Shown: in pieces, positions 1 through 39,612 of the stretch | Layout of the letters: each line of letters starts with the position of its first letter | Numbering within the stretch: the first letter of the stretch is position 1 | Virus record (IMG/VR): IMGVR_UViG_3300044953_000297 | From: an uncultured virus (IMG/VR IMGVR_UViG_3300044953_000297) | Lineage: Duplodnaviria; Heunggongvirae; Uroviricota; Caudoviricetes | Reading direction: 5' to 3' (one strand) | Length of the DNA: 59,088 nt | Made by a program: the position numbers and the translations under genes | The notes under the pieces: model-generated | The model's database searches: none | Told to the model about the DNA's origin: nothing | What the model saw: only the letters and a program-made list of their open reading frames with translations

Positions 1-2
1 TT

Positions 3-563
3 TTTGATATAAAAAGTGAAACGCCAATAATATTTGATTTAGGTGGACATAAGGGAGATTGGGTTCAGATAGCTTTAACTAAGTATCCGAAATCGATCAT
101 TTATGTATTTGAACCCATAAAACTATATTATGATTTAATTTGTGATCGATTTAAATCTATAAATAATGTTAAAGTTTTTAACTTTGCTATTTCGGACAAA
201 ACATATGAAACTGAGATTTCTATAGAAGGAGATCGATCATCTATTCATTTTGATTCAAAAACAATAGAGAAAGAGTGTATTAAAGTAAAGAATATCAGAG
301 AATTTTTATTTGAAGAACAAATATTTTTTGTGGATTTAATAAAAATTAACATAGAGGGTGAAGAGTATAATTTATTAGAATACTTGATGAACACCCCTGA
401 ATTATGCGTTTTTCAAAACTATGTAGTTCAGTTTCATAGAAACATTGAAAATCATATTTCTAGACGAAATTTTATATTAAACAACATTAAAAAATTCTAC
501 GATATAATATTTTCTGTAGATTTTGTTTGGGAAGGTTGGTCTATTAAAAAAATTAAAAAATAA
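3..563 (+). CDS. FkbM-family SAM-dependent methyltransferase (5' end outside window)
   Basis: Frame is open from the window edge: IFDLGGHKGDW..IYVFEP..DLIKINIEGEEY, the typical FkbM motifs. Same frame as track ORF 330..563. Confidence 0.85.
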   Translation, partial: FDIKSETPIIFDLGGHKGDWVQIALTKYPKSIIYVFEPIKLYYDLICDRFKSINNVKVFNFAISDKTYETEISIEGDRSSIHFDSKTIEKECIKVKNIREFLFEEQIFFVDLIKINIEGEEYNLLEYLMNTPELCVFQNYVVQFHRNIENHISRRNFILNNIKKFYDIIFSVDFVWEGWSIKKIKK

Positions 564-10875: not shown

Positions 10876-10899
10876 CTTCTTGATATTATATATAACTTA

Positions 10900-11619: not shown

Positions 11620-12712
11620 CTATATAATAGTAGGATCTGGGTTATTTGGATCTACATTTGCAAACTTAGTACATTCATGTGGAAAATCGTGTCTTGTTTT
11701 GGAAAAAAGAAATCACATAGGCGGTAACATTTATACTGAAAAAAAAGATGGTATTAATATACACATGTATGGTCCACATATATTTCATACATCAAATGAA
11801 AAAATTTGGAAATACATCAATAAATTTTCTAAATTTAATAATTTTTTAAATAGACCCAAAGTAAAATATAAGAATAATATATATTCATTTCCTATTAATT
11901 TATTAACTTTATATCAGTTATGGGGAGTTATCACTCCAGAACAAGCAAAGAATAAATTAAATAGTGTTAAACTTAAAATAAAAAATCCTAGTAATCTAGA
12001 AGAGTGGATTTTAAATCAAGTTGGAGAAGAAATATATGAGACATTCATATACGGTTATACTAAAAAACAATGGGGCAAAGAACCTTGTGAATTACCGAGT
12101 TCAATTGTTAAAAGATTGCCCATACGATTAGATTTTAATGATGGATATTATAATAATGAAGACATTTATCAAGGAATTCCAATAGATGGATATACCGTTA
12201 TTATAAATAATATGTTAAAAGATATTCAGGTGGAATTAAATGAAGATTTTAATAAAAACAAAGCTTATTGGCTTCCAAAAGCAAAACATATTGTCTATAC
12301 AGGAGCCATTGATCAATTATTTGATTATAAATTGGGAGTACTTGAATATAGAAGTCTTAAATTTGTACACGAAAAATTAAAAATTGGAGATTTTCAAGGA
12401 AATGCAATAGTTAATTATACGGAATATCAAGTTCCGTATACTAGAATTATAGAACATAAACATTTTGAAAATGTAAATGTAGAACATACAATAATAACAA
12501 AAGAATTTCCTGAAAAATGGACTATTGGTAAAGAAAGTTACTATCCTTTGAACAATAGTCAAAATGATGAATTGTATAAAAAATATATAGAATTGGCAAA
12601 AAAAGAATATCCTAATTTTATATTTGGTGGCAGATTAGCATCGTATAAATATTTTGACATGCATCAAGTTATAGGGCAAGCTATGCACAAAGCTCAAGAA
12701 CAATTTTGTTAA
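11612..12712 (+). CDS. glf: UDP-galactopyranose mutase
   Basis: YIIVGSGLFG, HIGGNIY, HMYGPHIFHT, YTKKQWG, YTRIIEHKHF, GRLASYKYFDMHQ. Confidence 0.95.
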   Translation: MYDYIIVGSGLFGSTFANLVHSCGKSCLVLEKRNHIGGNIYTEKKDGINIHMYGPHIFHTSNEKIWKYINKFSKFNNFLNRPKVKYKNNIYSFPINLLTLYQLWGVITPEQAKNKLNSVKLKIKNPSNLEEWILNQVGEEIYETFIYGYTKKQWGKEPCELPSSIVKRLPIRLDFNDGYYNNEDIYQGIPIDGYTVIINNMLKDIQVELNEDFNKNKAYWLPKAKHIVYTGAIDQLFDYKLGVLEYRSLKFVHEKLKIGDFQGNAIVNYTEYQVPYTRIIEHKHFENVNVEHTIITKEFPEKWTIGKESYYPLNNSQNDELYKKYIELAKKEYPNFIFGGRLASYKYFDMHQVIGQAMHKAQEQFC

Positions 12713-13340
12713 CTTGATTCATCAGTTCAAATTTTGAATTTGTAGTTAAAGCACAATTTGCATGATAAAGTAAAATATCTTTATTTATATGTTTGAAACC
12801 GACTGAAGTTTATAAAAATGTCGCTGGTAGTAAATCCCATTTTAAATTATAATTTTTGTTTTTATATAAAAATTCATTGATCACTTTTTGTTCCCAAGTA
12901 CCACTTTTACAAACTTCAAATATAACATCTTGGAAAAAATTAAGAGTTTTTTGATTAGATCGTATGATATTAAATCCAAAATTAATATTACCTCCTTGTA
13001 ATTCAAATATACCATCATAAAATTCTCGTAAAAATAAAACATCATTATTTTCTATTAAATTTAAAATTGTAGGAATGATTGGTTTATAAAATACAATATC
13101 AATATCCGAGAATACAAATACTTCATTTTCCGGTAACATTTTTATTATCTATACAATGTTATTCACACGTGATTTCCATATTTCGATTCCACCTCCGTAT
13201 TTGAGATGTTCCGGCAGATTTACATCAAAAACTGGAGAATTTATTTTTATTTCAATTTTATTAAAATTGTCTTTGACACTTTCAATAAAAGAGTTTTTAA
13301 GATCTAAAAATTTGTCATCATACATGTAATAAAGATTCAT
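12681..13340 (-). pseudogene. Nucleotide-diphospho-sugar transferase (GT77-like) with two in-frame stops
   Basis: One reading frame joins track ORFs 13149..13340 and 12810..13139 and continues to LLYHANC; FVFSDIDIVF motif; stops TAG 13149-13151 and TAA 12810-12812. Confidence 0.75.
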
Positions 13341-14278
13341 AAGTTTTTAAAGAAATATATCATTTTTCTACGATTATTATCGTTTATACTTTTAAATAAG
13401 TTACATCTCTGTTTATTTTTACCAATTAATTTAAAATTTTCTAAAACATCCTTAAATTTAGATTTATTTACGAAAAATGATTTTCTAAACGGATATAAAT
13501 TATTTGTATTGTCTGTACAATATATATAGTTTTGATCGATAAATTCTTCGACTGGTATAAAATGTACCAAGTCTGGGTCTAGTTGTTCTCTGAATACCGG
13601 TATATCACTGCAAATAATTTCAGCTCCTGTAGATAATCCTTCAAACAGATAATGTCCCCAACTTTCATATAAGCTACAACATATGTGAATATTGTGTGAA
13701 TTTAATAGATACGATATACTTTCTTCAGATTGATATGTGTTTATATGATTGAAATTTGAGGGTGGAATATATCTATTGTATGAATCGACCAAAGTAATCG
13801 GAATAGTCTGCGTCAGAATTAATTCTGTATTTTTTTGTATTGATCTGCCTACAAAATGTAAAAAAGAACTGGTACGTTCAACATTTATATTATATAAATT
13901 TTTTGAAATAAAAGGTAAACAAATTGCATTACAATAATTTTTAATTATATTGTATGCATAATTTGATTTGCATATTACATAATCAAATCTTTTAAGATCC
14001 TCGATGTTGTAATCAAACCATTCTTCATTTATATAAAAAATATTTATTTTAAAATTTTCCAGCAAATGACCATAATAATTTTGTATCCAAATTCCTATAT
14101 CAGATTTATACTTTTGATCAAATTTATCCAAAAAAATAATATGTGTATCTTGTAAAGAAATTTCTTCTAAAATATTTTTTAAAATTAGTGCGTCTGTCAC
14201 TAATCCAACATAATTATTAAAGGTCAATATATTATACCTCATATATGTTAAATAGTTGTGCATACAAGGTTTATTCAC
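13337..14278 (-). CDS. GT4-like glycosyltransferase
   Basis: FLHFVGRSIQKNT, SLYESWGHYLFEGLSTGAEIICSDIP. Confidence 0.8.
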   Translation of the reverse strand: MNKPCMHNYLTYMRYNILTFNNYVGLVTDALILKNILEEISLQDTHIIFLDKFDQKYKSDIGIWIQNYYGHLLENFKINIFYINEEWFDYNIEDLKRFDYVICKSNYAYNIIKNYCNAICLPFISKNLYNINVERTSSFLHFVGRSIQKNTELILTQTIPITLVDSYNRYIPPSNFNHINTYQSEESISYLLNSHNIHICCSLYESWGHYLFEGLSTGAEIICSDIPVFREQLDPDLVHFIPVEEFIDQNYIYCTDNTNNLYPFRKSFFVNKSKFKDVLENFKLIGKNKQRCNLFKSINDNNRRKMIYFFKNL

Positions 14279-14395
14279 AAAATGGTGAAGATGGAATAAT
14301 AGATATATCTCAGTGTTTTACTAATGATAAAGTAAAATTTAAAATGGAGCATAGATGGCCAAGAACAAAAAATATGGAATGGATATCGGTATAAT

Positions 14396-15070
14396 ATGAT
14401 AAATTCAATCGCAGATAAAGTATTTGTTATAACAACAGTTGATTCAAATCGGACAAATTATATAAAAAATCATTTAAATGAAAATAATATTAAATTTGAT
14501 TTTTTTGTAGCACCAGAGAAACTAATTGTAACTGACAATATTATTGTAAAAGACGGTGGGGATGTTAGTAGTAAAAATCACAAAGCGTCTATCAGTTTAA
14601 CATCTGCTTATACGTCTATAGTAGAAGTATCGAGGATAAACAATTTTACAAACATTTGTGTTATAGAGGACGACTGTTTTTTTACTAAAAACTGGATACA
14701 AAAAATTGATATATTTTTAAAAAATATACCCAATGATTGGGATGTATTAAATCTTGGTTATCATCCGTTACATGATACTGACACTATAAAACAAATGTAT
14801 AATGATTATGTAAATATTCCATTAAATTGGCATCACACGGCACACTGCATGATGTTAAAAAATACATGTTTTAATGAATTTTTGAATTTAATAAACATTT
14901 GGAAATATACAATACCTGTCGATTATATTTTCAATGAAATATATAAAAACAAACGATTTAAATGTTTTTTTCCAAGTGGAAAAATTATACACCAATTATC
15001 AGTTAGAGATCATAGATATGATATTGAAAATATAAATTTGAGATTTAAAAGTTTTGTTTATGATACCTAA
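14396..15070 (+). CDS. GT25-like glycosyltransferase
   Basis: VIEDDCFF, DWDVLNLG, PVDY; paralog of 9128..9763. Confidence 0.7.
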   Translation: MINSIADKVFVITTVDSNRTNYIKNHLNENNIKFDFFVAPEKLIVTDNIIVKDGGDVSSKNHKASISLTSAYTSIVEVSRINNFTNICVIEDDCFFTKNWIQKIDIFLKNIPNDWDVLNLGYHPLHDTDTIKQMYNDYVNIPLNWHHTAHCMMLKNTCFNEFLNLINIWKYTIPVDYIFNEIYKNKRFKCFFPSGKIIHQLSVRDHRYDIENINLRFKSFVYDT

Positions 15071-16259: not shown

Positions 16260-18080
16260 ATGTCGGATTTAAAAAATTTAGATAAATTACCGGGTGGTGT
16301 AGGCGATGGTGTAGATGCCTCAAAATTCAATCCTATACAACTTTCTTTAGGAATACAAATTGAAATGGAGCATACAAATGATCCTGAAATAGCACAAGAA
16401 ATCGCGTGCGATCATTTATATGAAGATCCCGCTTATTATACAAAATTGGTAAAAGCTGGTTTAGCCAAAGAATTTCAACCGTCACACAACAGCGGTCTCG
16501 GTGATCCTGATTATTCAGCTAACGATGCTTCTAGAGTAGGCATCGACGGTTTAAAGAAAGGAAATATGGGTGGTAAAATTGGTAATACATCTAATGGTCA
16601 AGTTGACGGAAGAAATAGTGAACCTATTGTAAATAAAACCGTTGATATTGAATTAGACGAAAAGAAAGGTAAAAAGAAACCAAAACCAACCAATCCAACT
16701 TTATGGGCAAGAGCTAAAGCTGCTGCAAGAGCCAAATTTGATGTATATCCGTGCGTACCACTTGATAGTAAAGCTCTTACAAAAAATGGATGGAAAACAT
16801 ATGAAGAATTAACTATAGGCGAATTGATATTGACTTATAATATTAATAAAGATGAATTGGAATGGAAACCAATATTAAATCTTAATTTTTTTGAAAATGC
16901 AGAGTTAGTAAGAATGTATAAACCTACAGGTTTTTCAATAAAGTGTACACCTAATCATAAGTGGGTTGTACAAAGAGGAAATGATTATTCTATTGTAGAA
17001 TTGATAGAAACAAAAGATTTACCTAAAAGAGCTAGAATAATAGTATGTGCAGAGTTAAAAAATAATGACAAAATATTATTAGAAAATTTTTCTAAAACCG
17101 ATAATTGGACTGAAAATATCATTAATATGAGTTCTGAACAAAGAAAGTCGTTTTTAGCAGCATCTATAATATATGATGGGTGGGATAAGGGATCTTCTTC
17201 AAAAATAGAAGGTCGTCATACTTTTGGATTTGTACAAAAAAATTCAGATCATTTGGATGCTGGTTTATTGGCAGCGTATTTAAGTGGATATTATGTATCT
17301 GTATGTGATAGAGAATCTATAACGTCTGCAAATTTTATAAGAAACAAAAAATTTCATTGTGTTCAAAATATAAAGTTTGAGAAAACAGAAAATGAGGATG
17401 TTTGGTGTCCGACTACCGAAAATAATACCTGGATAATGTACCAAAACGGATTAATTACAATTACAGGCAATTCGGCTTATGCTAATGGATGGGCCGCTAA
17501 GTGGTATAAAAAACACGGTGGTGGCTGGAGAATGAGTGAAGATGCCGAATCTAGTCCAGCCGCAGCTTATGATGGACCATTTCCATCACAAGTATCTCCA
17601 GATGGACAAGGCACTTATGGAAGTGGATATGATTTTGTAGGTTTTGCGGAAAATAAAGGTACAATTATGAAAAAAGAACAACTTAAAGAAGCTATCAAAA
17701 AATTAGTAAAACAAACATTGATTGAACAAGAACAAGACGATGTTGATGTAGCAGCCGAAGATGAAACTGTTACTATTACATTGGACAAACAACTTGCACA
17801 AAAATTGCATGATTTATTAATGACTCAACTTCAACCAGAAACTCCAGCAGGTCCAGAAGATGCAAACGATGTTGTGACTGCAGAAGATGACAAAGAAACA
17901 GTTGCTGCAAATATGAGTAGCGACCGACTACCACCAGGAGCTCTTCATAAACAACTTGGAGTTCCATCTGGAGAAAAAATACCAGCTGGTAAATTAGCAG
18001 ATGCTGCTAATAAAGGCGGTAAACTTGGTAAGAGAGACAGATTAGCTCAAACATTGAGTAAGATTGCCAAGAAAAAGTAA
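16260..18080 (+). CDS. Modular phage protein (DUF5661-like domain plus KFDVYPSAYANGW module) containing an intein
   Basis: GIQIEMEHTND..DHLYEDPAYY; spliced module PTNPTLWARAKAAARAKFDVYP|SAYANGWAAKWYKKHGGGW. Confidence 0.8.
   Translation: MSDLKNLDKLPGGVGDGVDASKFNPIQLSLGIQIEMEHTNDPEIAQEIACDHLYEDPAYYTKLVKAGLAKEFQPSHNSGLGDPDYSANDASRVGIDGLKKGNMGGKIGNTSNGQVDGRNSEPIVNKTVDIELDEKKGKKKPKPTNPTLWARAKAAARAKFDVYPCVPLDSKALTKNGWKTYEELTIGELILTYNINKDELEWKPILNLNFFENAELVRMYKPTGFSIKCTPNHKWVVQRGNDYSIVELIETKDLPKRARIIVCAELKNNDKILLENFSKTDNWTENIINMSSEQRKSFLAASIIYDGWDKGSSSKIEGRHTFGFVQKNSDHLDAGLLAAYLSGYYVSVCDRESITSANFIRNKKFHCVQNIKFEKTENEDVWCPTTENNTWIMYQNGLITITGNSAYANGWAAKWYKKHGGGWRMSEDAESSPAAAYDGPFPSQVSPDGQGTYGSGYDFVGFAENKGTIMKKEQLKEAIKKLVKQTLIEQEQDDVDVAAEDETVTITLDKQLAQKLHDLLMTQLQPETPAGPEDANDVVTAEDDKETVAANMSSDRLPPGALHKQLGVPSGEKIPAGKLADAANKGGKLGKRDRLAQTLSKIAKKK
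16752..17471 (+). mobile_element. Intein, 240 aa, with degenerate LAGLIDADG-like region
   Basis: CVPLDSKALTKNGWK (block A), CTPNHKW (block B), FLAASIIYDG, VWCPTTENNTW..ITGN|S (blocks F and G). Confidence 0.92.
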
Positions 18081-21710: not shown

Positions 21711-22109
21711 AAAATAAGCACAGCCGATATTATTGTGTGTAGAATTATAGATGGAAATACAGAAATACTATTAACATTGATATCTCCACATAGTTTTTGT
21801 GGTAACAAATGGTGTATTCCTGGTGGGCATTTAAATGAAAATGAAAATCCGATTGATGGAGGTATTAGAGAGTTATGTGAAGAAACTGGTATAGATTTAC
21901 GAAGTATTAGAAATAAAGTAAAAAAATTATTTGTACACAAATTAAACGAACACAGAGCTAAATTTGGAGCGACTTATGTGTGCATACTGCCTAAGAATTT
22001 CAAATATACTGTGAGTGTTCAACCATCGGAAGTTTCGGAGGCTCGCTGGTTTGATATACAAAAATTCCCCATGATAATATTGCATTTGATTATGGGGATA
22101 TTCTATTAA
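21703..22109 (+). CDS. NUDIX hydrolase (probable homopolymer frameshifts near both ends)
   Basis: WCIPGGHLNENENPIDGGIRELCEETG Nudix box; an alternative frame at the 3' end gives IAFDY. Confidence 0.85.
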
Positions 22110-22125
22110 AATTTAAGAAAAAAAA

Positions 22126-22377
22126 TTACAAAGTAAATTTTGGCTTCTTCAGATCTTCTGGTAATAAATCTTGTAGAGGTGCTTGACATTTTGTGCAAAC
22201 TGGTACTGCAATAGGTACTAATGCATCTTTAGTTGTGCCTGTTAGTAGTCTACTGACTTTACGAAACATATTACCTTGTACAAATACTTCATTTCCACAC
22301 TCACACGCAACTGGTGTAGTATCTTTAATACCAAAAGGAAGTGTTTGTGGAGGTTCTGGTTGTTCAAATCTATTCAT
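22126..22377 (-). CDS. small zinc-ribbon protein
   Basis: CECG..CTKC. Confidence 0.7.
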   Translation of the reverse strand: MNRFEQPEPPQTLPFGIKDTTPVACECGNEVFVQGNMFRKVSRLLTGTTKDALVPIAVPVCTKCQAPLQDLLPEDLKKPKFTL

Positions 22378-22380
22378 ATT

Positions 22381-24819
22381 TTATCTTATTCCTTTTCTTT
22401 TTTTGTAATCGTCTAACGCGGCATTAAGTGCTTCCTGTGCTAACACACTACAGTGAATTTTAACTGGTGGAAGTCCACCCAATGCTTCTACTATGTTATC
22501 ATTGCTAAAATTTTTTTCAAGATCTTCTATTGTTCTACCCTTAATAAGTTCGGTTGCCACACTAGAAGCAGCTATAGCACTGCCACAGTTATGTGACATT
22601 GCTCTTAATACAAAGAAACAGTTTGAACCTTCATTTAATTCTAAATCATAAACAATATAATTGTCATTAGATTTTTCCAATCCTCTTAATTCATTAACAT
22701 GTGTAATTTCTTTTTTTGATTTTAATGCAATTCCATTATGAATAAATCTTTGAATATCATTAATGCAAGTATCCAATTCATTTTTTTCAACAAACATCAC
22801 ATCAAAACCAGCAGATGAATAATCTTTTCTTTTTTGTATCATCCATCCTTGATTTTCACGATTTTGCATAAAATGAGGTAAATTTTTAGTATAAACTTCA
22901 ATTACTTTTTTTTGACCATTTACTTTAAAATCAGGATTAAATCTTTTTCCATCTGGTGTGTTTATCCAAAACTTATAATCTCCTACGTATCTTAAATCTA
23001 GATTTTCATTTACAAATTTATTAATAAACTTTTTTTCTAATAAAGTTGGTCTTTTCCACTGATCTTTTTTAATTCCCTCTTGCCAGTTTTTAACATATTC
23101 TGGATTTTTCCACATTTTTTTACAAGAAATGCTTGTTTTAAAACTAGAAATTTCAAGATTTTTTCTTTTGTATTTTTTTTGATTCTGAGGCAATTCTTTT
23201 TGTTTCATCAATCCAAGATTATTTCTTTTTGAAATTTTTTTTGAATTGATATCTTTTAACCATTGTTGTTTTCTAACATTATTAATTGAACGGAGTTCTC
23301 GTTCTGTCATTTCCAATACTTCCATTCCAATTTCAAAATTTTCTGTTACTAATGGTCTATTATCTGCGCCCCACCAAACATGGTCTTTAGTGCAAATTAT
23401 TTTTTTCCTTAATCCAAAATCTAATACACATAAATCATCGGAAGATACTTCTTTTTTAACAATATTTTTAACAGTATTTTTAACTACAGAGCTTCCATTC
23501 CATGTCCAAATTTGATCACCTATTTTTAAGTTTTTAATGGATGTATATCCGTTTGGAGTAGCAATTGGACTATTACCACCTAAGCATCCAAATGTCTTGA
23601 ATCGAGCATCAATAACTTTATTGGTTTGTTCATCGATTCTGAGACTAATCTTCATTATATCACCACAATTTTTAACGACTATTCCTTCTTCAACATTCAG
23701 GGTGATACGTGATAAAACAATATAATTATTATTTTCCTCAACTTGTAATGTATATGTTTGAATTTCTCCAATATATTCTCGTTTGATTATATTGTGATTA
23801 TAATGTTTGCATTCATCAAAAAACTCAGTCCATGATGGAAATCTTGTTGATAAAGACTGTGGAATTTTATTTTGTTTGGCATAAGATCGCCAAAGATTAG
23901 CGGTCAACTTACCGTGTTGTTTATATAAATTATTTCCTATTTTGAATAAATCTTCATCCGAATATCCTAACCACTTCGGATTTTTATTTCTCGGCTTAGA
24001 AGCGAATTTATATTTCCATTCATCGGACGTTTTATGATAACAATTATTATTTCCTTTTTGTCTTAGAGATATTAACTTCCTCTGTTCTTCGGTGGCCAAT
24101 TTTGAAAAATGATTTGCCAATTCACTTTTGTCATCAAACTTGTTAATGTTTTCCAATAAAATGTCTTTATTAATACATACATCAAATGTTTTTGGTCTAT
24201 CCCAATTTGGGTTTGTCAACTTAGTATGATCTGATTTTGGTAATCCTTGCAAATTACTAATACAGTTATTTTGTTTGTTTTCATCTATGTGATGTATATC
24301 ATATCCTATAGTATTATGGTCAGGATTGTGAAATTTATAAATTTCAATGTGTTCTTTCCTATGTTTGGTTTTTCTAATTTCCCAATATCCATTTTTGATT
24401 ATTTTTCGTTTGAATGGATAAATAGAATCATCACTTGTTAATAATTTATTTTCAACATATTGTTTTTTAGGACGAGTGAGAAATTTATGATCTTCCGTAC
24501 ATGTTATTGTACCGCCATCATTTAATGTCAATTTATATACTTTTTTGACACCAGATACAACTCCTATAGCATTTTTTATTTCAAATAAATTTGTTTTAGT
24601 ATTAAAGCTCCAAACAGGGGTTATTTTGTTTACTAAATTTTTAATAGGAGTATGTAAATTACCATCCGCTGTTGCTATTAAAGTATCACCATCAAAACAT
24701 GCTGCAGCCCCTACTTCACCTATAGCGTTTGCTTCTTTTATGTCACCCATATTTCTGGGATTCATAAAATGATCCATTACAGTTTGATTATATAGAGTAT
24801 AAGATTCATTCATACCCAT
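22381..24819 (-). CDS. iscU: IscU/NifU-N Fe-S cluster scaffold containing two inteins (135 aa after splicing)
   Basis: Exteins: YNQTVMDHFMNPRNMG..GEVGAAA|CGDIMKISL..DARFKTFG|CGSAIAASS..LPPVKIHCSVLA. Confidence 0.95.
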   Translation of the reverse strand: MGMNESYTLYNQTVMDHFMNPRNMGDIKEANAIGEVGAAACFDGDTLIATADGNLHTPIKNLVNKITPVWSFNTKTNLFEIKNAIGVVSGVKKVYKLTLNDGGTITCTEDHKFLTRPKKQYVENKLLTSDDSIYPFKRKIIKNGYWEIRKTKHRKEHIEIYKFHNPDHNTIGYDIHHIDENKQNNCISNLQGLPKSDHTKLTNPNWDRPKTFDVCINKDILLENINKFDDKSELANHFSKLATEEQRKLISLRQKGNNNCYHKTSDEWKYKFASKPRNKNPKWLGYSDEDLFKIGNNLYKQHGKLTANLWRSYAKQNKIPQSLSTRFPSWTEFFDECKHYNHNIIKREYIGEIQTYTLQVEENNNYIVLSRITLNVEEGIVVKNCGDIMKISLRIDEQTNKVIDARFKTFGCLGGNSPIATPNGYTSIKNLKIGDQIWTWNGSSVVKNTVKNIVKKEVSSDDLCVLDFGLRKKIICTKDHVWWGADNRPLVTENFEIGMEVLEMTERELRSINNVRKQQWLKDINSKKISKRNNLGLMKQKELPQNQKKYKRKNLEISSFKTSISCKKMWKNPEYVKNWQEGIKKDQWKRPTLLEKKFINKFVNENLDLRYVGDYKFWINTPDGKRFNPDFKVNGQKKVIEVYTKNLPHFMQNRENQGWMIQKRKDYSSAGFDVMFVEKNELDTCINDIQRFIHNGIALKSKKEITHVNELRGLEKSNDNYIVYDLELNEGSNCFFVLRAMSHNCGSAIAASSVATELIKGRTIEDLEKNFSNDNIVEALGGLPPVKIHCSVLAQEALNAALDDYKKRKGIR
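22588..23586 (-). mobile_element. IscU intein 2, 333 aa, with Vsr/PD-(D/E)XK-like endonuclease
   Basis: CLGGNSPIATPNG, CTKDHVW, RPTLLEKKF..NPDFKVNGQKKVIEVY, VYDLEL..MSHN|C. Confidence 0.92.
23668..24699 (-). mobile_element. IscU intein 1, 344 aa, with HNH endonuclease
   Basis: CFDGDTLIATADG, CTEDHKF, DIHHIDENKQNNCISNL, TYTLQVEENNNY..VVKN|C. Confidence 0.92.
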
Positions 24820-24821
24820 AA

Positions 24822-25928
24822 TTATATTCCTATTTGCTGTAAATCGTGAATTACCATTTTTTCTACAAGTTGTTTAAAATATGTCTTTGGAATCCAGTTT
24901 AATTCATTTCGTGCTTTTGTACTATCTCCGAGTAATAAATCTACTTCTGCGGGCCTGTAGAACTTGTGATTTATTTTAACTAATACACTATTTGATGGAT
25001 CGTATCTATTTGCATCTTTTACGCTAATACTAAATTCTGCATTTTCGGCTTCTCCGTGCCATATTCCATCAATGTCGGCAGCTTTAAAAGCTTCAAATAC
25101 AAATTCTTCAATAGTATGAGTTTCATTGCTGGATAGTACATATTCTTTTGGTTCATTTTGATTTAACATTTTCCAAATACCGTCAACAAAATCTTCGGCA
25201 TCACTCCAATCTCTGCTAGCTTTAACATTTCCCAGTTCAATACTGTCAAACGGTTTACCTTCTAAAAGCGCTTTTTTAATTCTAGCTACGCCCTTAGTGA
25301 TTTTACGAGTTACAAACTCTTCACCTCTTCTAGTTCCTTCGTGATTGAATAATAAACCTTGTATTGCAAACAGATTGTAAGATTCACGATATACTTTGAC
25401 CAACTGTCGTGCTGCCGATTTGCTTGCGCCATATGGACTACGAGGTTTATATGGATGTTTTTCATCTTGCGGAACATATTCTACGTCGCCGTACTCTTCA
25501 CTACTTCCAGCATTATAAAATCTACAAGATGGCTTGTATTGTTTAATAGCCTGCAATATATGAATTATACCGCACGTATTACATTCCCAGGTTTGTGATG
25601 GAAAATCCCAGGAAGATCCAACAAATGATTGCGCTGCTAAGTTTATAAAATAATCTGGCTTTAAATTTTCAACAATATTGTATATACTATGTGCATCGCT
25701 TAAATCAAAATTTACAAGATGAAATCTTGGATTGTTTTCTAAATGTACGATGTTGTCGTGGTTTTTGATGCTCAATCTTCTTGTTCCGCCAAAAATTATG
25801 TAATCGGTATTTTTTAGCAAATAATCAACCATGAAGCTACCATCTTGACCAGTCACTCCTGTAACGAATACTGTTTTTTTATCTTTGTTTAAAAACGAAA
25901 CTGCATCTTTCACATTATATGTTTGCAT
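24822..25928 (-). CDS. gmd: GDP-mannose 4,6-dehydratase
   Basis: VTGVTGQDGS, NLAAQSFVGSS, PRSPYGASK, LFNHEGTRRGEEFVTRKIT, FYRPAEVDLLLGD. Confidence 0.95.
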   Translation of the reverse strand: MQTYNVKDAVSFLNKDKKTVFVTGVTGQDGSFMVDYLLKNTDYIIFGGTRRLSIKNHDNIVHLENNPRFHLVNFDLSDAHSIYNIVENLKPDYFINLAAQSFVGSSWDFPSQTWECNTCGIIHILQAIKQYKPSCRFYNAGSSEEYGDVEYVPQDEKHPYKPRSPYGASKSAARQLVKVYRESYNLFAIQGLLFNHEGTRRGEEFVTRKITKGVARIKKALLEGKPFDSIELGNVKASRDWSDAEDFVDGIWKMLNQNEPKEYVLSSNETHTIEEFVFEAFKAADIDGIWHGEAENAEFSISVKDANRYDPSNSVLVKINHKFYRPAEVDLLLGDSTKARNELNWIPKTYFKQLVEKMVIHDLQQIGI

Positions 25929-26582: not shown

Positions 26583-27317
26583 TTAAAATCTTTGTTTTAA
26601 TATCTTCTTTCCATCTTGTAGAATATCTGGATCAAATACCTTTGGACCTTTACTTATATAACCTTTACCACATGTAAATGTGCAGTTATAACAAAGTAAC
26701 CTAATGTTTTCCAATTTATGGTTTTTGTTATTGCCATCTTCAAAATTTAATAATAATGGTATTTTACCATCCGTGAGTCTTCGTTCGTGATAACCACATT
26801 GTTCACACTCTGATTTTTTAATACCACTTCTTATGAGTTTATCCTTTAATCTGTGTATTGGGAAATCTGGATGTTTACCATCTAATATATCTTGTATTGG
26901 AAATTTACCTTTATTAGGATCTATAGGCCCCCTACAACATACACCTTTCGTAACAGGCCATCCTTTGGTTTTGTGTATGCCGTATAGTTTTGCATATTTC
27001 TTGAATGTGATATAACTTATACCAAGTAGTTTTGCAGCTTTTTTTGCGGTAGGTGCTCTATCAATTGCTTCTTGAACTTCCGATTGTAATATTGGTTTTT
27101 GGTTTCTACTGTGAGTTTTTCTTTTTGGATATAATTGTTCGGAAAATTGTTTTTCCAAATGAGGTATGGTGACTCCTTTTGATTGAAGTATTTTAAATTC
27201 TTCTATCTCATTTCTTACATCTTGACCCAACTGACTTAAACTAAGTAATTCTTCAACTTTGCTTTTAAGCTGGTCAAGTTCTTGTAACTTTTTTTCTATC
27301 TGTGATTGATCCATCAT
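26583..27317 (-). CDS. HTH plus degenerate HNH/zinc-finger protein
   Basis: KKAAKLLGISYITFKKY (HTH); CEQCG..LNFEDGNNKNHKLENIRLLCYNC. Confidence 0.7.
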   Translation of the reverse strand: MMDQSQIEKKLQELDQLKSKVEELLSLSQLGQDVRNEIEEFKILQSKGVTIPHLEKQFSEQLYPKRKTHSRNQKPILQSEVQEAIDRAPTAKKAAKLLGISYITFKKYAKLYGIHKTKGWPVTKGVCCRGPIDPNKGKFPIQDILDGKHPDFPIHRLKDKLIRSGIKKSECEQCGYHERRLTDGKIPLLLNFEDGNNKNHKLENIRLLCYNCTFTCGKGYISKGPKVFDPDILQDGKKILKQRF

Positions 27318-27649
27318 GTTTTTGAAGCCGATAACGGTTCTTTAGCTAAATCTATCGAGGTATTCATATAAAACACTTTCCTCAACACTTCGGCTCTAGA
27401 TGGTGATCCGGCATTTAATAAAACTTTATATGTATTTATAATTTTTTTCTTTGCGTTTTTTCTTTTGAGTGATTTGACAAACATCACAGGATTTACTAAA
27501 AAATCGGAATCCCCCTCAATTGTTTTTTTAATTTTAAATTCAACACCTCTTGTACATGCCTCGACATGTGGATCTGCAAATATAGATTCGTCAACATATA
27601 CTTCTAACGACCAATCTGCTGTACTAACTGAATAATTATTTTTATACAT
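27314..27649 (-). CDS. hypothetical protein
   Basis: ORF overlapping both neighbours in operon fashion. Confidence 0.6.
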   Translation of the reverse strand: MYKNNYSVSTADWSLEVYVDESIFADPHVEACTRGVEFKIKKTIEGDSDFLVNPVMFVKSLKRKNAKKKIINTYKVLLNAGSPSRAEVLRKVFYMNTSIDLAKEPLSASKT

Positions 27650-29246
27650 AGTTCATATCCCCGTCGTTAAGTAAATCCAAGTTGGTTAGTTTTTGATTAA
27701 CACTATCACAAACTTTTTCTTCAACGGTATTAGCAACAAATACAATTTTCTGTATACTCTTGCTTTTTGCACCATCACGCCAGACTCTACCAGTGGCTTG
27801 ACGCATGTTTACAGCTGAATATGATGGGCTAATTAATGCCAATCTTGGATGTTTACCGGTTATATCGTGTAAGCTTAACCCAGCACCACCCGCTGCTAGA
27901 TTTAGTAGTATCACGCGTTGTTTATCACTTTGAAAATCATCAATGCTTTGTTGACGAGTTTTTGCGTACTTAGCTTCACCATTCACAATACATTTGGTAT
28001 TTAGTCTTTGTGATAAAGCTTCTATAGTTTCTGAAAAGTTCAAAAATACAGCAATACTCATATTATTTTCTAAAGCATCTTCAACCATTTCAACAAATAG
28101 GGGAACTTTTGTCATTTCTACCTTTTGCCTGGATCTCAGAATAGCTGTAAGTTCGCTGCTCTTTTTATCTTTCTTTAGTAACTTTTCAATCTTAAGCAAT
28201 TCAAGTCGCATTTCATCATACGCGGCATTAATTTTATCCTGATCTTCTTTATCCATTTCATAACAGTTTGCGATGATTTGACTTTCTGGAAAGTTTGGAA
28301 TTGTATCTCTACTCAATCTTACGCCTCTGTTTGTAAATATATCGGTGCTTAATTTAGTTAATGATTTGCGATCACCTGTGAATTCCATTCCGAATCTACC
28401 TCTTACCACACCATGTGCATAAGCCCAATCATAATATTGTTTGTTGTTATTAAACAACTTTATACACTGTCCTACAGTACGAAGTTCAAGTGGATTTGTT
28501 GCCATAGTAGCGCTACAAAATAACATCTTATATCCAGATTTAAGCGCGGCCATACAAGTTTCACTGTTCTTGGTTTTTGCGTTCTTTAATTTTTGAGCTT
28601 CATCCCAAACAATCAAAGTATTCTTAGGAAGCTTCCAAACAAATTCTTTACGACGAGTGTCTCTTCGTTTAACTATAGATACATAGATGCTATCTGATTT
28701 ACCTATACGAAGAGTTTCATAATTAACAATGCCAATACAATTGCCCCAATACTTAAAGTGATTTTTTATAACTCTTTTCCAACTTTCCATGACTGCTTTT
28801 GGACATACAACCATAATATCCACATTTAATTCTCTAGCAACGGCGGTGGCTGTATATGTTTTGCCAACGCCGACATCGCTTCCGTCTACCGCAGCCCCCC
28901 ACTTTTTAATTGAGGCTACTATTTTGCTTACCGCATCAACTTGCCACGGTCTTAGACCCGTTGTATTTTTAACCTCATATAAAGGCAAAGATTCATCTTG
29001 TTTTTCATTGGCTTTTTTGGGTTCTTTAAACAGTGTTGGATTATCTTTAATCTCGGTTAGAATCCAATTATCTCCCAATTTTGTTACGCCATATCCACGA
29101 TCCTTTAATATGAGTCTATTTACCTTCCAGTAGGTAAAAAATTGGTTTAAATATGCTTGAGGTATAACCCAACTTCTTTGAAACAGAACATCGCCGTTTT
29201 TCTCAATTTGAACTGGATCAGACCATTGTATGTTCAAATTAATCAT
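27642..29246 (-). CDS. SF2 (SNF2-like) DNA helicase
   Basis: LRPWQ, DVGVGKT, IVWDEAQ, CSAT, AGGAGLSL, QATGRVWR. Confidence 0.88.
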   Translation of the reverse strand: MINLNIQWSDPVQIEKNGDVLFQRSWVIPQAYLNQFFTYWKVNRLILKDRGYGVTKLGDNWILTEIKDNPTLFKEPKKANEKQDESLPLYEVKNTTGLRPWQVDAVSKIVASIKKWGAAVDGSDVGVGKTYTATAVARELNVDIMVVCPKAVMESWKRVIKNHFKYWGNCIGIVNYETLRIGKSDSIYVSIVKRRDTRRKEFVWKLPKNTLIVWDEAQKLKNAKTKNSETCMAALKSGYKMLFCSATMATNPLELRTVGQCIKLFNNNKQYYDWAYAHGVVRGRFGMEFTGDRKSLTKLSTDIFTNRGVRLSRDTIPNFPESQIIANCYEMDKEDQDKINAAYDEMRLELLKIEKLLKKDKKSSELTAILRSRQKVEMTKVPLFVEMVEDALENNMSIAVFLNFSETIEALSQRLNTKCIVNGEAKYAKTRQQSIDDFQSDKQRVILLNLAAGGAGLSLHDITGKHPRLALISPSYSAVNMRQATGRVWRDGAKSKSIQKIVFVANTVEEKVCDSVNQKLTNLDLLNDGDMNYV

Positions 29247-30430: not shown

Positions 30431-31078
30431 TTATTTGTTCACCAAAAAATGTTTCCAATCTTGGTGTTTCGCTTCTTTGATTAGAGCATATACTGGAATA
30501 GGCTGAGGCGCCGCTGGATTTTTCAATAGTTTCAAACCAGCTTCACTGTTTAGTCTATTACCCTTTTTGGAGTTAATATCTTTTGAACACAATACCAGAT
30601 TGGTCCAAGAATCTTCTCCACCCTTACTACGAGGAATAACATGGTCAACTGTGGCCCGATGTTTTTCAATTTTTTCACCGGTGTATTGACAAACACCATT
30701 GTCACGGTTAAAAATTGCGTCCTTACTAGGTTTACCCCTAAAATGCTTTACAGGCATCTTGTTGAAGTTAACAGAAATTAATACTGTTGGAACACGAATA
30801 ATTCTGTTTGGAGAATTTATGGTCAAATCCCAACTACGAATCGGTAGAGTCATCCATTCAGTCCAAGATACCGGAGTCATGCTTTTAGGATCATCCAATA
30901 TTGGATCCCCATTTTCGTCGGTCTCGTAATCAATATCCAATGCTGAACTAGTTGGCTTGCCATCAGATTCAGCGCCGCATAAATCAATAATTGCATCTTT
31001 TACGGTTTTAAATCCAACTGGTTGCCAGTTGGCATTCAAATTTAGACATATTAACTTATTTGCTATTGTAGTATTCAT
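30431..31078 (-). CDS. HNH endonuclease (McrA-like)
   Basis: FNRDNGVCQYTG, TVDHVIPRSKGGEDSWTNLVLC, NSKKGN. Confidence 0.9.
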   Translation of the reverse strand: MNTTIANKLICLNLNANWQPVGFKTVKDAIIDLCGAESDGKPTSSALDIDYETDENGDPILDDPKSMTPVSWTEWMTLPIRSWDLTINSPNRIIRVPTVLISVNFNKMPVKHFRGKPSKDAIFNRDNGVCQYTGEKIEKHRATVDHVIPRSKGGEDSWTNLVLCSKDINSKKGNRLNSEAGLKLLKNPAAPQPIPVYALIKEAKHQDWKHFLVNK

Positions 31079-31092: not shown

Positions 31093-31437
31093 CTATACCA
31101 CACTTTTTATAAATGTCAAGGGATTTTCTTCTCGTTCAAGACTTTCGTCAAGTCTATTCTTAATCATATGTAATGGGCACCGAAACCATTCCTTTTTTCT
31201 GTCGGTTGCAAAATATTTCATATTTTCTTGAATTTTCTTTTCTGCTGAATAACAATCCGGGTGTTTTACATAGTGCTCTATCTTATAATCCCGAAATGGA
31301 GACGAAGTTTGATAGGTTCTTAATCTGGAGTTTATATCGTGTGTAACTCCAATTTTGTAATATTCTGGAAAATGAATATTACTGATTATATATATGTATC
31401 CTTCTTTTTTTCTAGATAATTTCGTCTGCGAGTCCAT
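31093..31437 (-). CDS. GIY-YIG (T5orf172-like) domain protein
   Basis: GYIYII..YYKIGVT..RLRTYQTSSP..AEKKI..EWF. Confidence 0.8.
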   Translation of the reverse strand: MDSQTKLSRKKEGYIYIISNIHFPEYYKIGVTHDINSRLRTYQTSSPFRDYKIEHYVKHPDCYSAEKKIQENMKYFATDRKKEWFRCPLHMIKNRLDESLEREENPLTFIKSVV

Positions 31438-32014
31438 ATTTTACAGCATCTTCTGCGTTCAAATATATATCACGTTTTAATACCTCATTTAACTCAGACT
31501 CACCAAATTTAGTATGTTTTAAGTAAATAGACTTAATTATATCTGATAACATATCCAAATTGTGAGTTTCGTCTTTAAAGTTTTCATGAGTTCCTTGAAA
31601 CCAACTACGAACTTGATGAATCAACATTACTGAATTTTTATTGATATATCTTTTATGACAGCTTACGCTGATGAGTGTTGCAGCGCTGGCAACCAAACCT
31701 TCTACATAACTGTGTACAGGCACTTTACTGGTTCGTATTCTGTCTACAGTGGACAAGGCTCCAAATACCTGACCCCCATCGCTATTTATGTATAATTTTA
31801 TTGGAGCCGGATTTGGTAAATCAAAGGTTATTTGGTGTATTAACAGTTGTTTGGAAAGATCGGTTATCGATTTGTTTATTGTGAATATAGACTCATTATT
31901 TACATCCGAATAAAAATATATATCATTACTTGTTATAACCGATGAATATTTTGTTTTATCGTGTTGAATATCTTGGTCATCTAAATCAGCAGTTAGCATT
32001 AATTTTTTAGACAT
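31412..32014 (-). CDS. clpP: ClpP-like protease subunit
   Basis: IKLYINSDGG, GLVASAATLI, MLIHQ, RDIYLNAEDAVKYGLADEI. Confidence 0.85.
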   Translation of the reverse strand: MSKKLMLTADLDDQDIQHDKTKYSSVITSNDIYFYSDVNNESIFTINKSITDLSKQLLIHQITFDLPNPAPIKLYINSDGGQVFGALSTVDRIRTSKVPVHSYVEGLVASAATLISVSCHKRYINKNSVMLIHQVRSWFQGTHENFKDETHNLDMLSDIIKSIYLKHTKFGESELNEVLKRDIYLNAEDAVKYGLADEII

Positions 32015-32085
32015 GTTACTTTATAAATAGAAATCGTGTAAATTATAAAATTATTTTTATTGATCTAATCAATACATATGGAAGT

Positions 32086-33216
32086 ATGAATACTTGGAAA
32101 CTTAACGAAAACCACTTCACTTGGTTAGATAGGTTAAAAATTTGCAAGTTTTTTTTAAATACTAAAAATTTTTGGACATATGGTAAATATGTTAAAAAGT
32201 TTGAAGAAGAGATGACAAAATATGTAGGCGTCAAACATGCGTTATTTGTTTCAAGTGGGTCAACGGCCAATACAGTATTAGCATATTATTTAGGAACCGT
32301 GACGACCAAAAAGAAGATTATATTTCCATCTGTGACTTGGGCAACATCAATTACACCATTTGTTAAGTGCGGATTTGAACCAATATTTGTAGATGTGTCA
32401 TTAAATGATTTATCGGCAAATTTAGATGAAATTGAAACTATACTTCAAAATGACAAAGATATCGCTTTGATATTTGTCACATCCCTATTGGGTGTATCTC
32501 CCGATATTGGTAGATTAAAACAAATAGAAGCTAAGTATGGTGTTAGGGTTATGTTGGATAATTGCGAAAGTACACTTAGTAGTTATAATGGAAAAAATTT
32601 AAGCAGTTATTTCACATCTACTACTAGTACATATTTTGGACATTTGTTACAAAGTGTAGAAGGCGGATTTGTGTTCACCAACGATGATTCAGAATACGAA
32701 ATGTTCAATATGATTCGAAATCATGGTATGTACAGACATTTGGAGCCAAACAGAACCGAAAAGTATAGAAATAAAGATGTAGATTCTAGGTTTGATTTTT
32801 ATACCATTGGAAATAATTTTAGAAATAGTGACATTCACGCATTCATAGGATTATTAGACTTTTCTAGAACCAATAAATATATAAGTCATAGAAAAGATTG
32901 TTATCAACACTTTGTTAAGTGTCTTAATAAAGATAGATACTACACCATTGATTTTAATGATGAAAATATTATGTTTTCGTTGCCTATAATCTGCAAATCA
33001 TCGTCTGACCTACAATCAATTAAAGATTATTGTGACAAAAACAATATAGAGTATAGACCGATTGTAGGTGGTAATATTTTGAAACAAACCGCATTTAAAA
33101 AATATTCGTATAAATCATATGAAAACGTTGACACCATACATCAATGTGGAATTTATATTGGGTTACATTATGGTGTCAACAAATCTCAAATAGAAGAGTT
33201 TTGTTCTTCTATTTAA
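32086..33216 (+). CDS. DegT/DnrJ-family PLP enzyme, ColD-like dehydratase
   Basis: FVSSGSTAN, DNCES, STYFGHLLQSVEGG (His at the usual PLP-Lys position), RPIVGGN. Confidence 0.85.
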   Translation: MNTWKLNENHFTWLDRLKICKFFLNTKNFWTYGKYVKKFEEEMTKYVGVKHALFVSSGSTANTVLAYYLGTVTTKKKIIFPSVTWATSITPFVKCGFEPIFVDVSLNDLSANLDEIETILQNDKDIALIFVTSLLGVSPDIGRLKQIEAKYGVRVMLDNCESTLSSYNGKNLSSYFTSTTSTYFGHLLQSVEGGFVFTNDDSEYEMFNMIRNHGMYRHLEPNRTEKYRNKDVDSRFDFYTIGNNFRNSDIHAFIGLLDFSRTNKYISHRKDCYQHFVKCLNKDRYYTIDFNDENIMFSLPIICKSSSDLQSIKDYCDKNNIEYRPIVGGNILKQTAFKKYSYKSYENVDTIHQCGIYIGLHYGVNKSQIEEFCSSI

Positions 33217-33221
33217 TTACT

Positions 33222-34220
33222 TTATATACGAGTTATACATAATATTTTATCGTCGGTATCATACACTATTGTGTTGACAACCGAAGTATTGTTTTTATCA
33301 GTCAGTTGTATTGAAACTTTAGTGTTCGAATCTATATTTCGGGTCTGATACCAGCTTCTTGACCCCCTATATTCATCGTACACTAAATTTTCGTTTATAT
33401 ACACTTTTACCTTATACACTTCGGTTGATGTGGTGTTATAATACATTGCATGCACCGACCCGGTTACACTTTTTGTCAAAAAAAATGACTGCGTAGCTTG
33501 AAAATTTATGTTATTGTGTCTAATATTAAATTCTTCATTTCCATTTAAATACGGAAAGTCTTCAAGTTTTATTTCATAAATATCATCGTTTTTATGTCTG
33601 AAACAATTGTAGAACGCGACCTCTTATATTTTGTGAGTGCCAATATTGTGGGAGTTTTGTGGTAAATTACAATCGTGGTAGTTATCAGGATATTGTAAAT
33701 TTTCAATTACAAACTTTATGTTTGCAAAAAAGTTTGTGGTGTGTAACATTTTTTCATATGAAAATTCTCCTACTACAGCACACATTTTTTTAACATTTAG
33801 AATATCAAAGAAATATTGCAATTGATTTACATTGACTAAAATATCATCTTCTGTGTAATACGCATTATCGAATCCAAGAAAGTTTGCGGTATTAAATAAA
33901 AATTTGATGTTTCTATTGATTATCAAATCTGTTGAATCTTGAAACAAAATGTAGTCAATATTTGATATATTAAATGTAAAACATGCGACACCTCCGAGAC
34001 CGGAACAATATGCATTTCTATAAAATGATGCTGGTTTTATTTCTTTTTCTTTATTTATAATGATATAATCGACCATCGAATAAATTGATTGTGGAACTTC
34101 ACATCCAGAACACAAAATTATTGGAATGTTTAATGTTTTAAAACTTAAAATTTGTTTTTCCAATACTTTTATTTTTTTCTCATTTATTGGATACGAATTT
34201 ATAAGTATGCATTTTTTCAT
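33222..34220 (-). pseudogene. hypothetical glycosylation-island protein with one in-frame TAA
   Basis: Track ORFs 33624..34220 and 33222..33479 share one frame, broken only by TAA at 33624-33626; related to 35821..36856. Confidence 0.6.
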
Positions 34221-35029
34221 ATATGTGAGTATATATATCCTTCATTAGAGTGTCTCATATGGAATAAGTCTATGGTTTTTCTCTTATAGTATATTTCTCC
34301 ATCAAAGTACGGTGCATTTTGCAATCTTTCTATTAAATTTTGTTGGAATAAAAATCCTAATTTTGGATTGTCTAATGTGAGACGACCGTGAATTTCGACG
34401 CTGATATTTTTTATTTTGGATAAATTTTCGTCACTTATTCCCTCAAATACATTATATTCGTGTCCTTCAACATCCACCTTTAGAAAATCAACAGTATCTA
34501 AAAGTTTTTGGTCAAATAAATAATTTAGAGTTACACAGTATGTGAGAGAATCGTCTTTTTTACGATATTTATCATCTTGCAAATTATTTTCTTTGCTCCA
34601 AACGGTGTTTAAATTTTTGAACCCAACTTCATCGCTTATTGCAAATTGATATAACGATGAATTTGGAATATTGTTCATTAAGAATGCTTTGCTTTCTTTT
34701 GAAGACGGCTCAAATGCTATAATCTTTTTTGCTCCTCTCTGATAAGCAAAATAAGAAGTTAATCCACAGCTTGCACCTATATCTACAAACACATTGCACG
34801 AATTATCTATAATACAACCCCCAGCTTCTATTAATGAGTTTCCAGATGTTAAGAATTGTGAATCGTGATATTTCGAAAAGTCAAATGCTTCCAAATAAGT
34901 GTAACATGCTTTTGGATATTGTCCACATCTAATATTATCATAATTATATACATTTGGCTCAAAATGATACAATGTGGGATCATTGTGATAGCCGTCTACA
35001 TAACAATAAAATGGAAATTTTTGTGTCAA
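34217..35029 (-). CDS. FkbM-family methyltransferase
   Basis: FVDIGASCG, IAFEPS, VDFLKVDVEGHEY, ISVEIH. Confidence 0.85.
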   Translation of the reverse strand: MTQKFPFYCYVDGYHNDPTLYHFEPNVYNYDNIRCGQYPKACYTYLEAFDFSKYHDSQFLTSGNSLIEAGGCIIDNSCNVFVDIGASCGLTSYFAYQRGAKKIIAFEPSSKESKAFLMNNIPNSSLYQFAISDEVGFKNLNTVWSKENNLQDDKYRKKDDSLTYCVTLNYLFDQKLLDTVDFLKVDVEGHEYNVFEGISDENLSKIKNISVEIHGRLTLDNPKLGFLFQQNLIERLQNAPYFDGEIYYKRKTIDLFHMRHSNEGYIYSHI

Positions 35030-35532: not shown

Positions 35533-35619
35533 AACACTCTGTATACTACACTATGCAATTTTTGTTTATAAATCAAGTTAAATTAAATAGATGCCAAAAA
35601 ATATTTTCTATTTATAAAT

Positions 35620-35817: not shown

Positions 35818-35820
35818 TTT

Positions 35821-37903: not shown

Positions 37904-37959
37904 AACATATCTTATATATATTTATTGTCGTATCTATATATTATTATATTTAAAGTTTT

Positions 37960-38493: not shown

Positions 38494-38510
38494 TTATATA
38501 TTTATATCAT

Positions 38511-38873: not shown

Positions 38874-38874
38874 C

Positions 38875-39609: not shown

Positions 39610-39612
39610 ATA

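Follow-up and report, generated by a model that had tools for sequence, protein, structure and literature searches.

How an iron-sulfur (Fe-S) scaffold protein can be interrupted twice by inteins, each lying directly before a cysteine that the mature protein uses as a cluster ligand, and whether such inteins serve their host or only themselves, are the questions raised by a minus-strand open reading frame (ORF) in the DNA of an uncultured virus. The window analyzed here, 59,088 nucleotides (nt) in length, is part of the 74-kb IMG/VR virus record IMGVR_UViG_3300044953_000297, which is estimated to be 21% complete. According to the ORF list, the reading frame starts with ATG and stays open over 812 amino acids (aa); it encodes a precursor of IscU. 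A previous reading made from the sequence alone (hereafter, the sequence-only reading) had proposed that the arrangement could form a redox- or metal-gated AND switch on a viral Fe-S assembly gene. Our analysis makes it very probable that the phage has here a functional IscU gene into which two selfish inteins, both competent to splice, were inserted one after the other.

The precursor is recognizable as an IscU in several ways. Pfam NifU_N (PF01592) reaches 132 bits (cut-off 22), split over three separate stretches of the protein; Pfam further reports an intein splicing domain, an HNH_3 motif and weak Hint matches, NCBIfam reports NifU/IscU models together with intein N- and C-terminal regions, and PHROG 8429 (NifU-like Fe-S cluster assembly protein) is matched as well. 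The interruption precludes a full score with the IscU equivalog TIGR01999 (119.8 bits for the precursor, cut-off 192.4), and close intein-free relatives match solved ISCU/IscU chains at expectation values (E) of 1e-34 to 1e-38. The parts of the protein were mapped with a profile from 115 intein-free relatives, by reading of the junctions and by translation of the parts (Table 1). The exteins total 135 aa (40 + 27 + 68). Joined in silico, they are identical to the intein-free relative P0121 at 127 of 133 positions, and because both junctions align without a gap, removal of the two inteins restores an uninterrupted IscU. The inteins also differ from the exteins in GC content (0.28 and 0.26 vs 0.36). 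ORF, profile and junction mapping thus agree with the earlier description of a 135-aa IscU grown to 812 aa by two inteins only 27 residues apart.

The two cysteines that follow the inteins, Cys385 in the CGD motif (site a, between A and CGD) and Cys745 in the GCGS motif (site b, between FG and CGS), are the first and second cluster ligands. C385, D387, C745, H789 and C790 are invariant in an alignment of 52 sequences. Each intein does, as had been claimed, use a cluster-ligand cysteine as its +1 residue. With a profile that includes site-b inteins, the C-side stretch aligns from residue 63 of the 128-residue IscU chain 2kqk_A, which fits the numbering of the Escherichia coli IscU ligands, Cys37, Cys63 and Cys106. 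No intein was found before the cysteine of the third-ligand HC(S) motif among the listed relatives, where the preceding residue is His wherever the motif was found.

Table 1. Features of the interrupted iscU gene and its direct neighbors, in window coordinates.
Feature	Positions	Strand	Extent, motifs and position	Basis
IscU precursor ORF	22381..24819	(-)	812 aa; stop codon 22381-22383	Pfam NifU_N, NCBIfam NifU/IscU models, PHROG 8429
N-extein	24700..24819	(-)	aa 1-40; ends EVGAAA	IscU profile positions 1-41
Intein 1	23668..24699	(-)	aa 41-384, 344 aa; CFDGDT...TEDH...GIVVKN, then CGD	Translation, Pfam, TIGR01445
HNH homing-endonuclease motif (predicted) in intein 1	24223..24351	(-)	Protein aa 157-199	Pfam HNH_3, 29.9 bits (cut-off 24.8)
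Middle extein	23587..23667	(-)	aa 385-411, 27 aa; CGDIMK...RFKTFG	IscU profile positions 36-71
Intein 2	22588..23586	(-)	aa 412-744, 333 aa; CLGGNS...TKDH...RAMSHN, then CGS	Translation, alignment, AlphaFold2 model
Vsr-like nuclease domain (predicted) in intein 2	22729..23046	(-)	Intein residues 181-286	VIA-align, Foldseek
C-extein	22384..22587	(-)	aa 745-812; starts CGSAIA, holds H789-C790 (third ligand pair)	Best NifU_N stretch, aa 743-809
GDP-mannose 4,6-dehydratase	24822..25928	(-)	Directly upstream of iscU, 2-nt spacer	Pfam GDP_Man_Dehyd, 355 bits
83-aa Cys-rich ORF	22126..22377	(-)	CxC...CxxC; directly downstream of iscU, 3 nt past stop	Homologs right after IscU in the loci inspected

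Intein 1 scores 37.5 bits with Pfam Intein_splicing (cut-off 35.8) and 52 bits with TIGR01445, the intein N-terminal region (cut-off 24.5). Its C1, the block B residues T68 and H71 and the terminal N344 are invariant in 33 aligned sequences (this intein and 32 relatives), and Cys385 provides the +1 residue. With a Hint domain, Cys1, TxxH, Asn and +1 Cys, it is predicted to be a canonical class 1 intein, the penultimate His excepted. H158 does not vary in the HNH region of the same alignment, and H137 and N149 hardly do, consistent with a predicted HNH homing endonuclease.

In intein 2, the residues C1, block B H69, H332 and terminal N333 are invariant in 40 aligned sequences, with Cys745 at +1. 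The AlphaFold2 (AF2) model of this intein has a mean predicted local distance difference test (pLDDT) value of 86. VIA-align identifies a Hint fold over the range 1..333, with Z 18.8 for 2lwy, 17.3 for the RecA intein and 16.5 for the gp41-1 intein (Z 18.8-14 across intein and bacterial intein-like, BIL, structures), and Foldseek gives Hint matches with E as low as 7e-6. Judged by this modeled fold and its full catalytic set, intein 2 would be a canonical class 1 intein as well. A helical region (approximately intein residues 95-193) precedes a second domain, which VIA-align matches to the catalytic domain of I-Bth0305I (3r3p_B; Z 10.3, root-mean-square deviation, rmsd, 2.9 A, 93 of 98 residues aligned), the putative endonuclease 3hrl (Z 8.6) and Vsr (1cw0; Z 8.2); Foldseek finds 3r3p_B at E 4e-3. 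P218, D219, F220, K227, E230 and R243 of this domain are invariant in the 40 sequences, and the model suggests a Vsr-like catalytic fold. A match of intein 2 to HaeIII methylase (E 0.04), from a sequence search of solved structures, was taken as chance. The AF2 model of the whole precursor (pLDDT 79, predicted template modeling score, pTM, 0.46) was rejected as an unreliable guide to the assembly of the exteins before splicing; in Foldseek it matches IscU chains over just 71-118 columns, at rmsd 6-15 A.

Relatives of intein 2 occur in many host proteins. The full-library search with this intein returned 470 representatives at E<=0.001, and 35 of the 150 listed were scanned against Pfam. All 19 long relatives show Hint or intein matches; their hosts are radical-SAM proteins (8), DNA polymerase B (2), DegT aminotransferases (2), NrdD (1) and QueC (1), and the others have a PD-(D/E)XK nuclease (1), weak transglutaminase-like matches (1) or Hint/intein-type matches alone (3). 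The 16 short relatives are free-standing, with NUMOD3 in 10 and sub-threshold Vsr or DUF559 matches in five. The sequence-only reading had called the two inteins unrelated, which is fair in the sense of different lineages, because their nuclease domains differ and they share merely a generic N-terminal Hint likeness (34% over 73 aa, E 0.007).

Alleles with no, one or two inteins coexist in one syntenic phage lineage. An intein-free query retrieved 68 related viral loci: neither site is filled in 64, site a is filled in one and site b in another, and two loci are cut by contig ends. Because site a is covered by one of the six patterns used in the search, this sample leans slightly to intein-free alleles. 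Close single-intein alleles carry intein 1 (L074 and L075, 86% aa identity) or intein 2 (L072, 93%; L073, 86% over its first 72 residues). A further site-b-only allele was found in a contig of run X7, which skips from 23611 to 24697 of the window and contains intein 2 with 56 differences in 1105 nt. Lake water is the source of the metagenomic runs in which the gene is present.

Outside this lineage, both sites are occupied repeatedly. Database hits of comparable length (446-1421 aa) numbered 169, of which the best 120 were examined: 117 are IscU and three are ribonucleotide reductases with a relative of intein 1. This length range leaves out intein-free IscU, and the following counts are therefore uninformative on the frequency of inteins among all IscU. 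Site a alone is filled in 45 of the 117 (and probably in four more), site b alone in 47 (and probably in one more), and both sites in 16, namely this protein and 15 other clusters; four were without an assigned class, two of them intein-free ThiF fusions. In these listed relatives each site holds at least two intein lineages, a KN/HNH type and an HN/LAGLIDADG type at site a, and an SHN/THN type and a VHN/LAGLIDADG type at site b. The site-b lineage is present inside IscU at eight loci in bacterial genomes, mostly metagenome-assembled genomes (Polyangiaceae, Thiotrichaceae, Rhizobium, Candidatus Achromatium palustre, an alphaproteobacterium, Myxococcales, Crocinitomicaceae and Fischerella, the last with a mini-intein), and in seven further viral contigs.

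The host gene is under strong constraint, as follows from the ratio of nonsynonymous to synonymous substitution rates (dN/dS) in the exteins, which is 0.05-0.12 at dS 0.8-1.8 in comparison with five intein-free alleles (dS was saturated for a sixth). Compared with L074 and L075, intein 1 has a dN/dS of 0.08-0.09; its Hint part taken alone gives 0.07, and the middle with the HNH motif gives 0.08-0.09. The low value in the middle indicates that the nuclease of intein 1 is being kept. For the Hint N-part of intein 2, dN/dS against L072 is 0.10, based on few changes. Nucleotide identity to L072 is 72-77% in the flanking genes and N-extein and 92.9% over the 862 nt of middle extein plus intein 2, with the switch located at site a. 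This jump points to the footprint of intein 2 having moved recently and co-converted the flank upstream of it, or of the entry of intein 1 into an intein-2 allele; by either route, the two inteins would have been acquired one after the other. A comparison of 63 intein-free alleles with the window flanks, over 36 nt at each site, shows differences of 2-9 nt for site a and of 3-10 nt for site b.

These observations are consistent with the following course of events, which we infer from them. Two different class 1 inteins would have entered the phage IscU gene, an auxiliary Fe-S scaffold gene, each in an event of its own. After translation, each intein would fold alone and its Cys1 would attack the preceding peptide bond; the +1 cysteine (Cys385 or Cys745) would then receive the N-extein by trans-thioesterification, the terminal Asn would cyclize, and an S-to-N shift would produce a normal peptide bond. 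Both splicing reactions would be needed, because only the doubly spliced 135-aa product unites the three ligand cysteines in one IscU fold able to bind a cluster; on this point the sequence-only reading was logically bound to be right. The insertion sites may owe their use to codons more invariant than any others in the gene, which the host cannot alter and which make good homing targets, and to the cysteine, which supplies the nucleophile. The inteins would persist and spread as selfish DNA through their nucleases, of the HNH type in intein 1 and with a Vsr-like fold in intein 2. The allele pattern, the identity jump and the purifying selection on the nuclease are what selfish homing gives without a regulatory role.

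Several observations weigh against this account. Intein 1 has no penultimate His, its place being taken by Lys343, which is nearly invariant in the lineage. A penultimate His is common in inteins, not strictly defining, and inteins without it are able to splice. The KN terminus is found in 36 of the 65 site-a inteins among the listed relatives and is therefore a trait of the lineage, and the near-invariance of Lys343 argues for a functional variant of the intein 1 terminus. Intein 2 scores below the Pfam intein cut-offs, and its middle has a dN/dS of 0.32 against L072, a value based on just 23 substitutions; its nuclease may be decaying. No solved nuclease, 3r3p included, was matched by sequence in searches with the whole of intein 2, its profile or the domain alone, and it was the fold search that identified the domain. 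As for the EDxHD motif, D219 and E230 are invariant, and H238, the sole His in the stretch examined, is not conserved in the consensus; the placement of the motif was estimated from structural alignment ranges. The identity step of intein 1 against L074 and L075 is small (78-81% vs 70-78%) and leaves recent mobility of this intein unsupported. Finally, runs X1-X5, two of which reproduce the double arrangement (see below), are possibly source samples of this DNA, and the support from X1 and X4 is good, not independent.

Of the alternatives, the one that survives best, though we consider it unlikely, is a conditional AND switch. In this reading the inteins now serve as sensors: splicing pauses when the Cys1/+1 Cys pairs are oxidized or bind Zn, Cu or Fe, and active IscU appears only once permissive conditions have let both inteins go. 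The SufB intein would be the precedent; Topilina et al. are said to have presented it in 2015 as a stress sensor. The idea is chemically plausible: Cys1/Cys+1 pairs, which both inteins have, can be oxidized or bind zinc, and theirs is the chemistry of the reversible oxidative inhibition seen in mycobacterial DnaBi1 (PMC6195587). The +1 residues also serve the mature protein as metal ligands, and purifying selection on intein 1 is strong. On the other hand, the sequence features do not set these inteins apart from ordinary selfish ones. As most sister-phage loci (64 of 68) are without either intein and single-intein alleles are common, the pair is not a conserved module. Both the selection acting on the nuclease region and the jump in identity at intein 2 bear the mark of homing and not of a benefit to the host, and a lytic phage would have little time for slow conditional maturation. 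Nothing in the data points to conditional splicing.

We give slightly less credence to a reading in which the ligand cysteines act as the sensors, with Fe, Zn or oxidants at Cys385 and Cys745 of the precursor holding back one splicing step or both and active IscU being freed only in a reducing, metal-balanced cell. If true, such ligand-cysteine sensing would amount to a two-input protein switch of natural origin, acting on an auxiliary metabolic gene.

A dead gene, in which at least one intein has lost the ability to splice and IscU is decaying, appears very improbable. The Lys in place of the penultimate His, the low Pfam scores of intein 2 and the relaxed middle of that intein could be read in this way. 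Yet the 812-codon frame is open, the low extein dN/dS was obtained at dS near or above 0.8, all ligand and all splicing residues are kept, and the KN ending is shared by the lineage.

The middle extein that different alleles have in common is merely 81 nt long, and an assembly chimera of two single-intein alleles had therefore to be weighed. The identical 812-aa protein is on record from five contigs. A separately built contig of run X1 (25,045 nt) spans window positions 21800-25400, and one of run X4 spans 22583-25400 with both inteins, each with 0 differences; low-depth fragments of both inteins in run X6 were not counted as support. The contigs of run X4 break at the junction of intein 2 and C-extein with a 30-nt overlap (window 22583-22612), which may reflect another allele with the same C-extein in that sample. 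A joining of site-a-only and site-b-only alleles of one sample across the short shared stretch, for which the single-intein alleles in related samples (the X7 contig, L072 and L074) would supply the material, is the least likely of all readings, given the identical protein from five contigs, the X1 and X4 contigs that bridge both inteins (even if these runs are possibly source samples) and the 15 other listed clusters of other lineages in which both sites are filled.

With respect to novelty, the claim that no doubly interrupted IscU had been described stands in part. No paper on an intein in IscU or NifU was found in the literature searched, with subscription papers and InBase outside the search. 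A 2016 survey of intein hosts lists SufB as the Fe-S-related host, and neither IscU nor NifU appears in its main text or in the two supplementary files searched (PMC4760082). The arrangement is not rare in sequence data, as the 15 other listed double-site clusters show, and inteins fill these sites in many metagenomic and bacterial IscU genes. The two elements are canonical inteins; what is new is the host protein, along with the sites within it, which appear undescribed.

Known systems resemble the phage gene in some respects and differ in others. The SufB (Pps1) intein of Mycobacterium tuberculosis, the usual example of an intein put forward as a stress sensor, likewise sits in an Fe-S assembly protein and must be spliced before the machinery works (PMC8891592). 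In contrast, SufB belongs to the SUF system and has a single intein encoded on a bacterial chromosome, whereas IscU in the phage has two, each before a ligand cysteine. DnaB of Mycobacterium smegmatis also contains two different inteins (DnaBi1 and DnaBi2), both of which need to be spliced, and oxidants inhibit DnaBi1 reversibly via a cysteine disulfide (PMC6195587). DnaB is a replicative helicase, DnaBi1 is a class 3 intein, and condition-dependence has been measured there. A further parallel is haloarchaeal MCM, in which two homing inteins (MCM-a and MCM-d) occupy nearby sites, alleles with no, one or two inteins coexist, and double alleles reportedly arise mainly when single-intein alleles are invaded (PMC10643990), which fits the breakpoint at site a. 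These MCM inteins are archaeal and chromosomal, and from the methods of that paper their nucleases read as LAGLIDADG; in IscU, the sites are 81 nt apart and the predicted nucleases are HNH and Vsr-like.

Vsr-like/EDxHD homing endonucleases have been described from "fractured genes" and from I-Bth0305I, in phage-type loci linked to inteins (PMC2677866, PMC3239194), the composite EDxHD catalytic motif being defined in the latter paper. Intein 2 is similar in that its predicted nuclease fold is that of the I-Bth0305I catalytic domain and in that it has free-standing relatives with NUMOD motifs. The published ORFs considered here are free-standing between split-intein halves or lie in group I introns, whereas the domain in intein 2 lies in frame in a contiguous intein, a state that the model of Dassa et al. 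drew (PMC2677866). PHROG 8429 is a phage family of NifU-like proteins, and IscU and A-type carriers encoded by phages have been described from ocean viromes as well as from complete genomes of environmental viruses (PMC5332604). The main text of that paper has 0 occurrences of the word "intein," in contrast to the two inteins of this lake-water phage.

The phage nature of the gene, which the sequence-only reading had assumed, is borne out by the IMG/VR record and by rIIA, rIIB, a T4-type clamp loader, a ClpP-type head protease and an endolysin-like protein in the window. No close isolated phage was found: the SNF2 helicase has no match among GenBank phages, the top identity of rIIA is 31% (to KVP40-like phages), and the best IscU among isolated phages is 59.5% identical. 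The claim that the gene is conserved in the phage lineage also holds, with 68 related viral loci. Related contigs share the order SNF2 helicase, two small ORFs, HNH protein, GDP-mannose dehydratase, IscU and 83-aa Cys-rich ORF; the dehydratase is present in 55, the helicase in 45 and the 83-aa ORF in 36 of the 68. No Pfam family scores above cut-off for the 83-aa Cys-rich ORF, which could be a partner of the phage IscU.

Other mobile elements are seen elsewhere in this genome. The clamp-loader gene lies in at least three pieces, two upstream of the window (G000:C1:13128-13283 and 14788-15057) and one within the window region 557-2298 (+), which cover positions 4-55, 56-141 and 55-307 of PHROG 168. 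The last piece (window 1564-2298) opens with the C-fragment of a split intein (MVKIKIK...TLTSN, then CDF) and follows a pair of free-standing ORFs, 557-1099 and 1068-1592, the latter with a weak TnsA-like nuclease match and no similarity to intein 2. The locus resembles the "fractured gene" type of Dassa et al. (2009). A further intein (VYP, then CVPLDS...ITGN, then SAYANGW) lies in a 606-aa protein with an N-terminal DUF5661 at window 16260-18080 (+); it has a +1 Ser and no penultimate His, and two of its middle stretches are LAGLIDADG-like by eye. The SNF2-type helicase ORF is 875-892 aa long in L012, L020, L035 and L072, vs 534 aa in the window (27642-29246), which suggests that the longer alleles contain an insertion, such as an intein, and thereby one more mobile element that is polymorphic among these phages. 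The genes at window 26583-27317, 30431-31078 and 31093-31437 (-) comprise two free-standing HNH endonucleases and one of T5orf172/GIY-YIG-like type. At least four inteins and the free-standing endonuclease genes show a genome rich in homing elements.

Two other regions of the window stand out. At 50000-56000 the GC content rises from about 0.30 to 0.41-0.45, with small ORFs, a tRNA-Arg(TCT) gene at 52371-52447 and rIIA/rIIB. At 1-15000 and 32000-41500 there are unusually many sugar-nucleotide and glycosyltransferase genes, including GDP-mannose dehydratase, epimerases, UDP-galactopyranose mutase, a DegT aminotransferase, RmlA- and RmlD-like proteins, FkbM methyltransferases and several glycosyltransferase families; the phage probably builds or modifies a glycan.

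The view of how inteins work is left unchanged by these findings, as the system is mechanistically ordinary and recurs in databases. What it adds is that IscU appears to be an undescribed yet widespread intein host, in which both occupied sites are cluster-ligand cysteines. In intein 2, a Vsr-like nuclease would be fused in frame, the state predicted by the "fractured genes" model. The natural alleles with no, one or two inteins in one gene neighborhood, together with a visible breakpoint, are useful for following intein invasion at sites 81 nt apart. As a small (135-aa) and well-understood host protein in which the splicing nucleophile is a metal ligand, IscU offers a clean system for the study of gating by metals and oxidants, and the pair is suited to asking whether two neighboring inteins splice independently.

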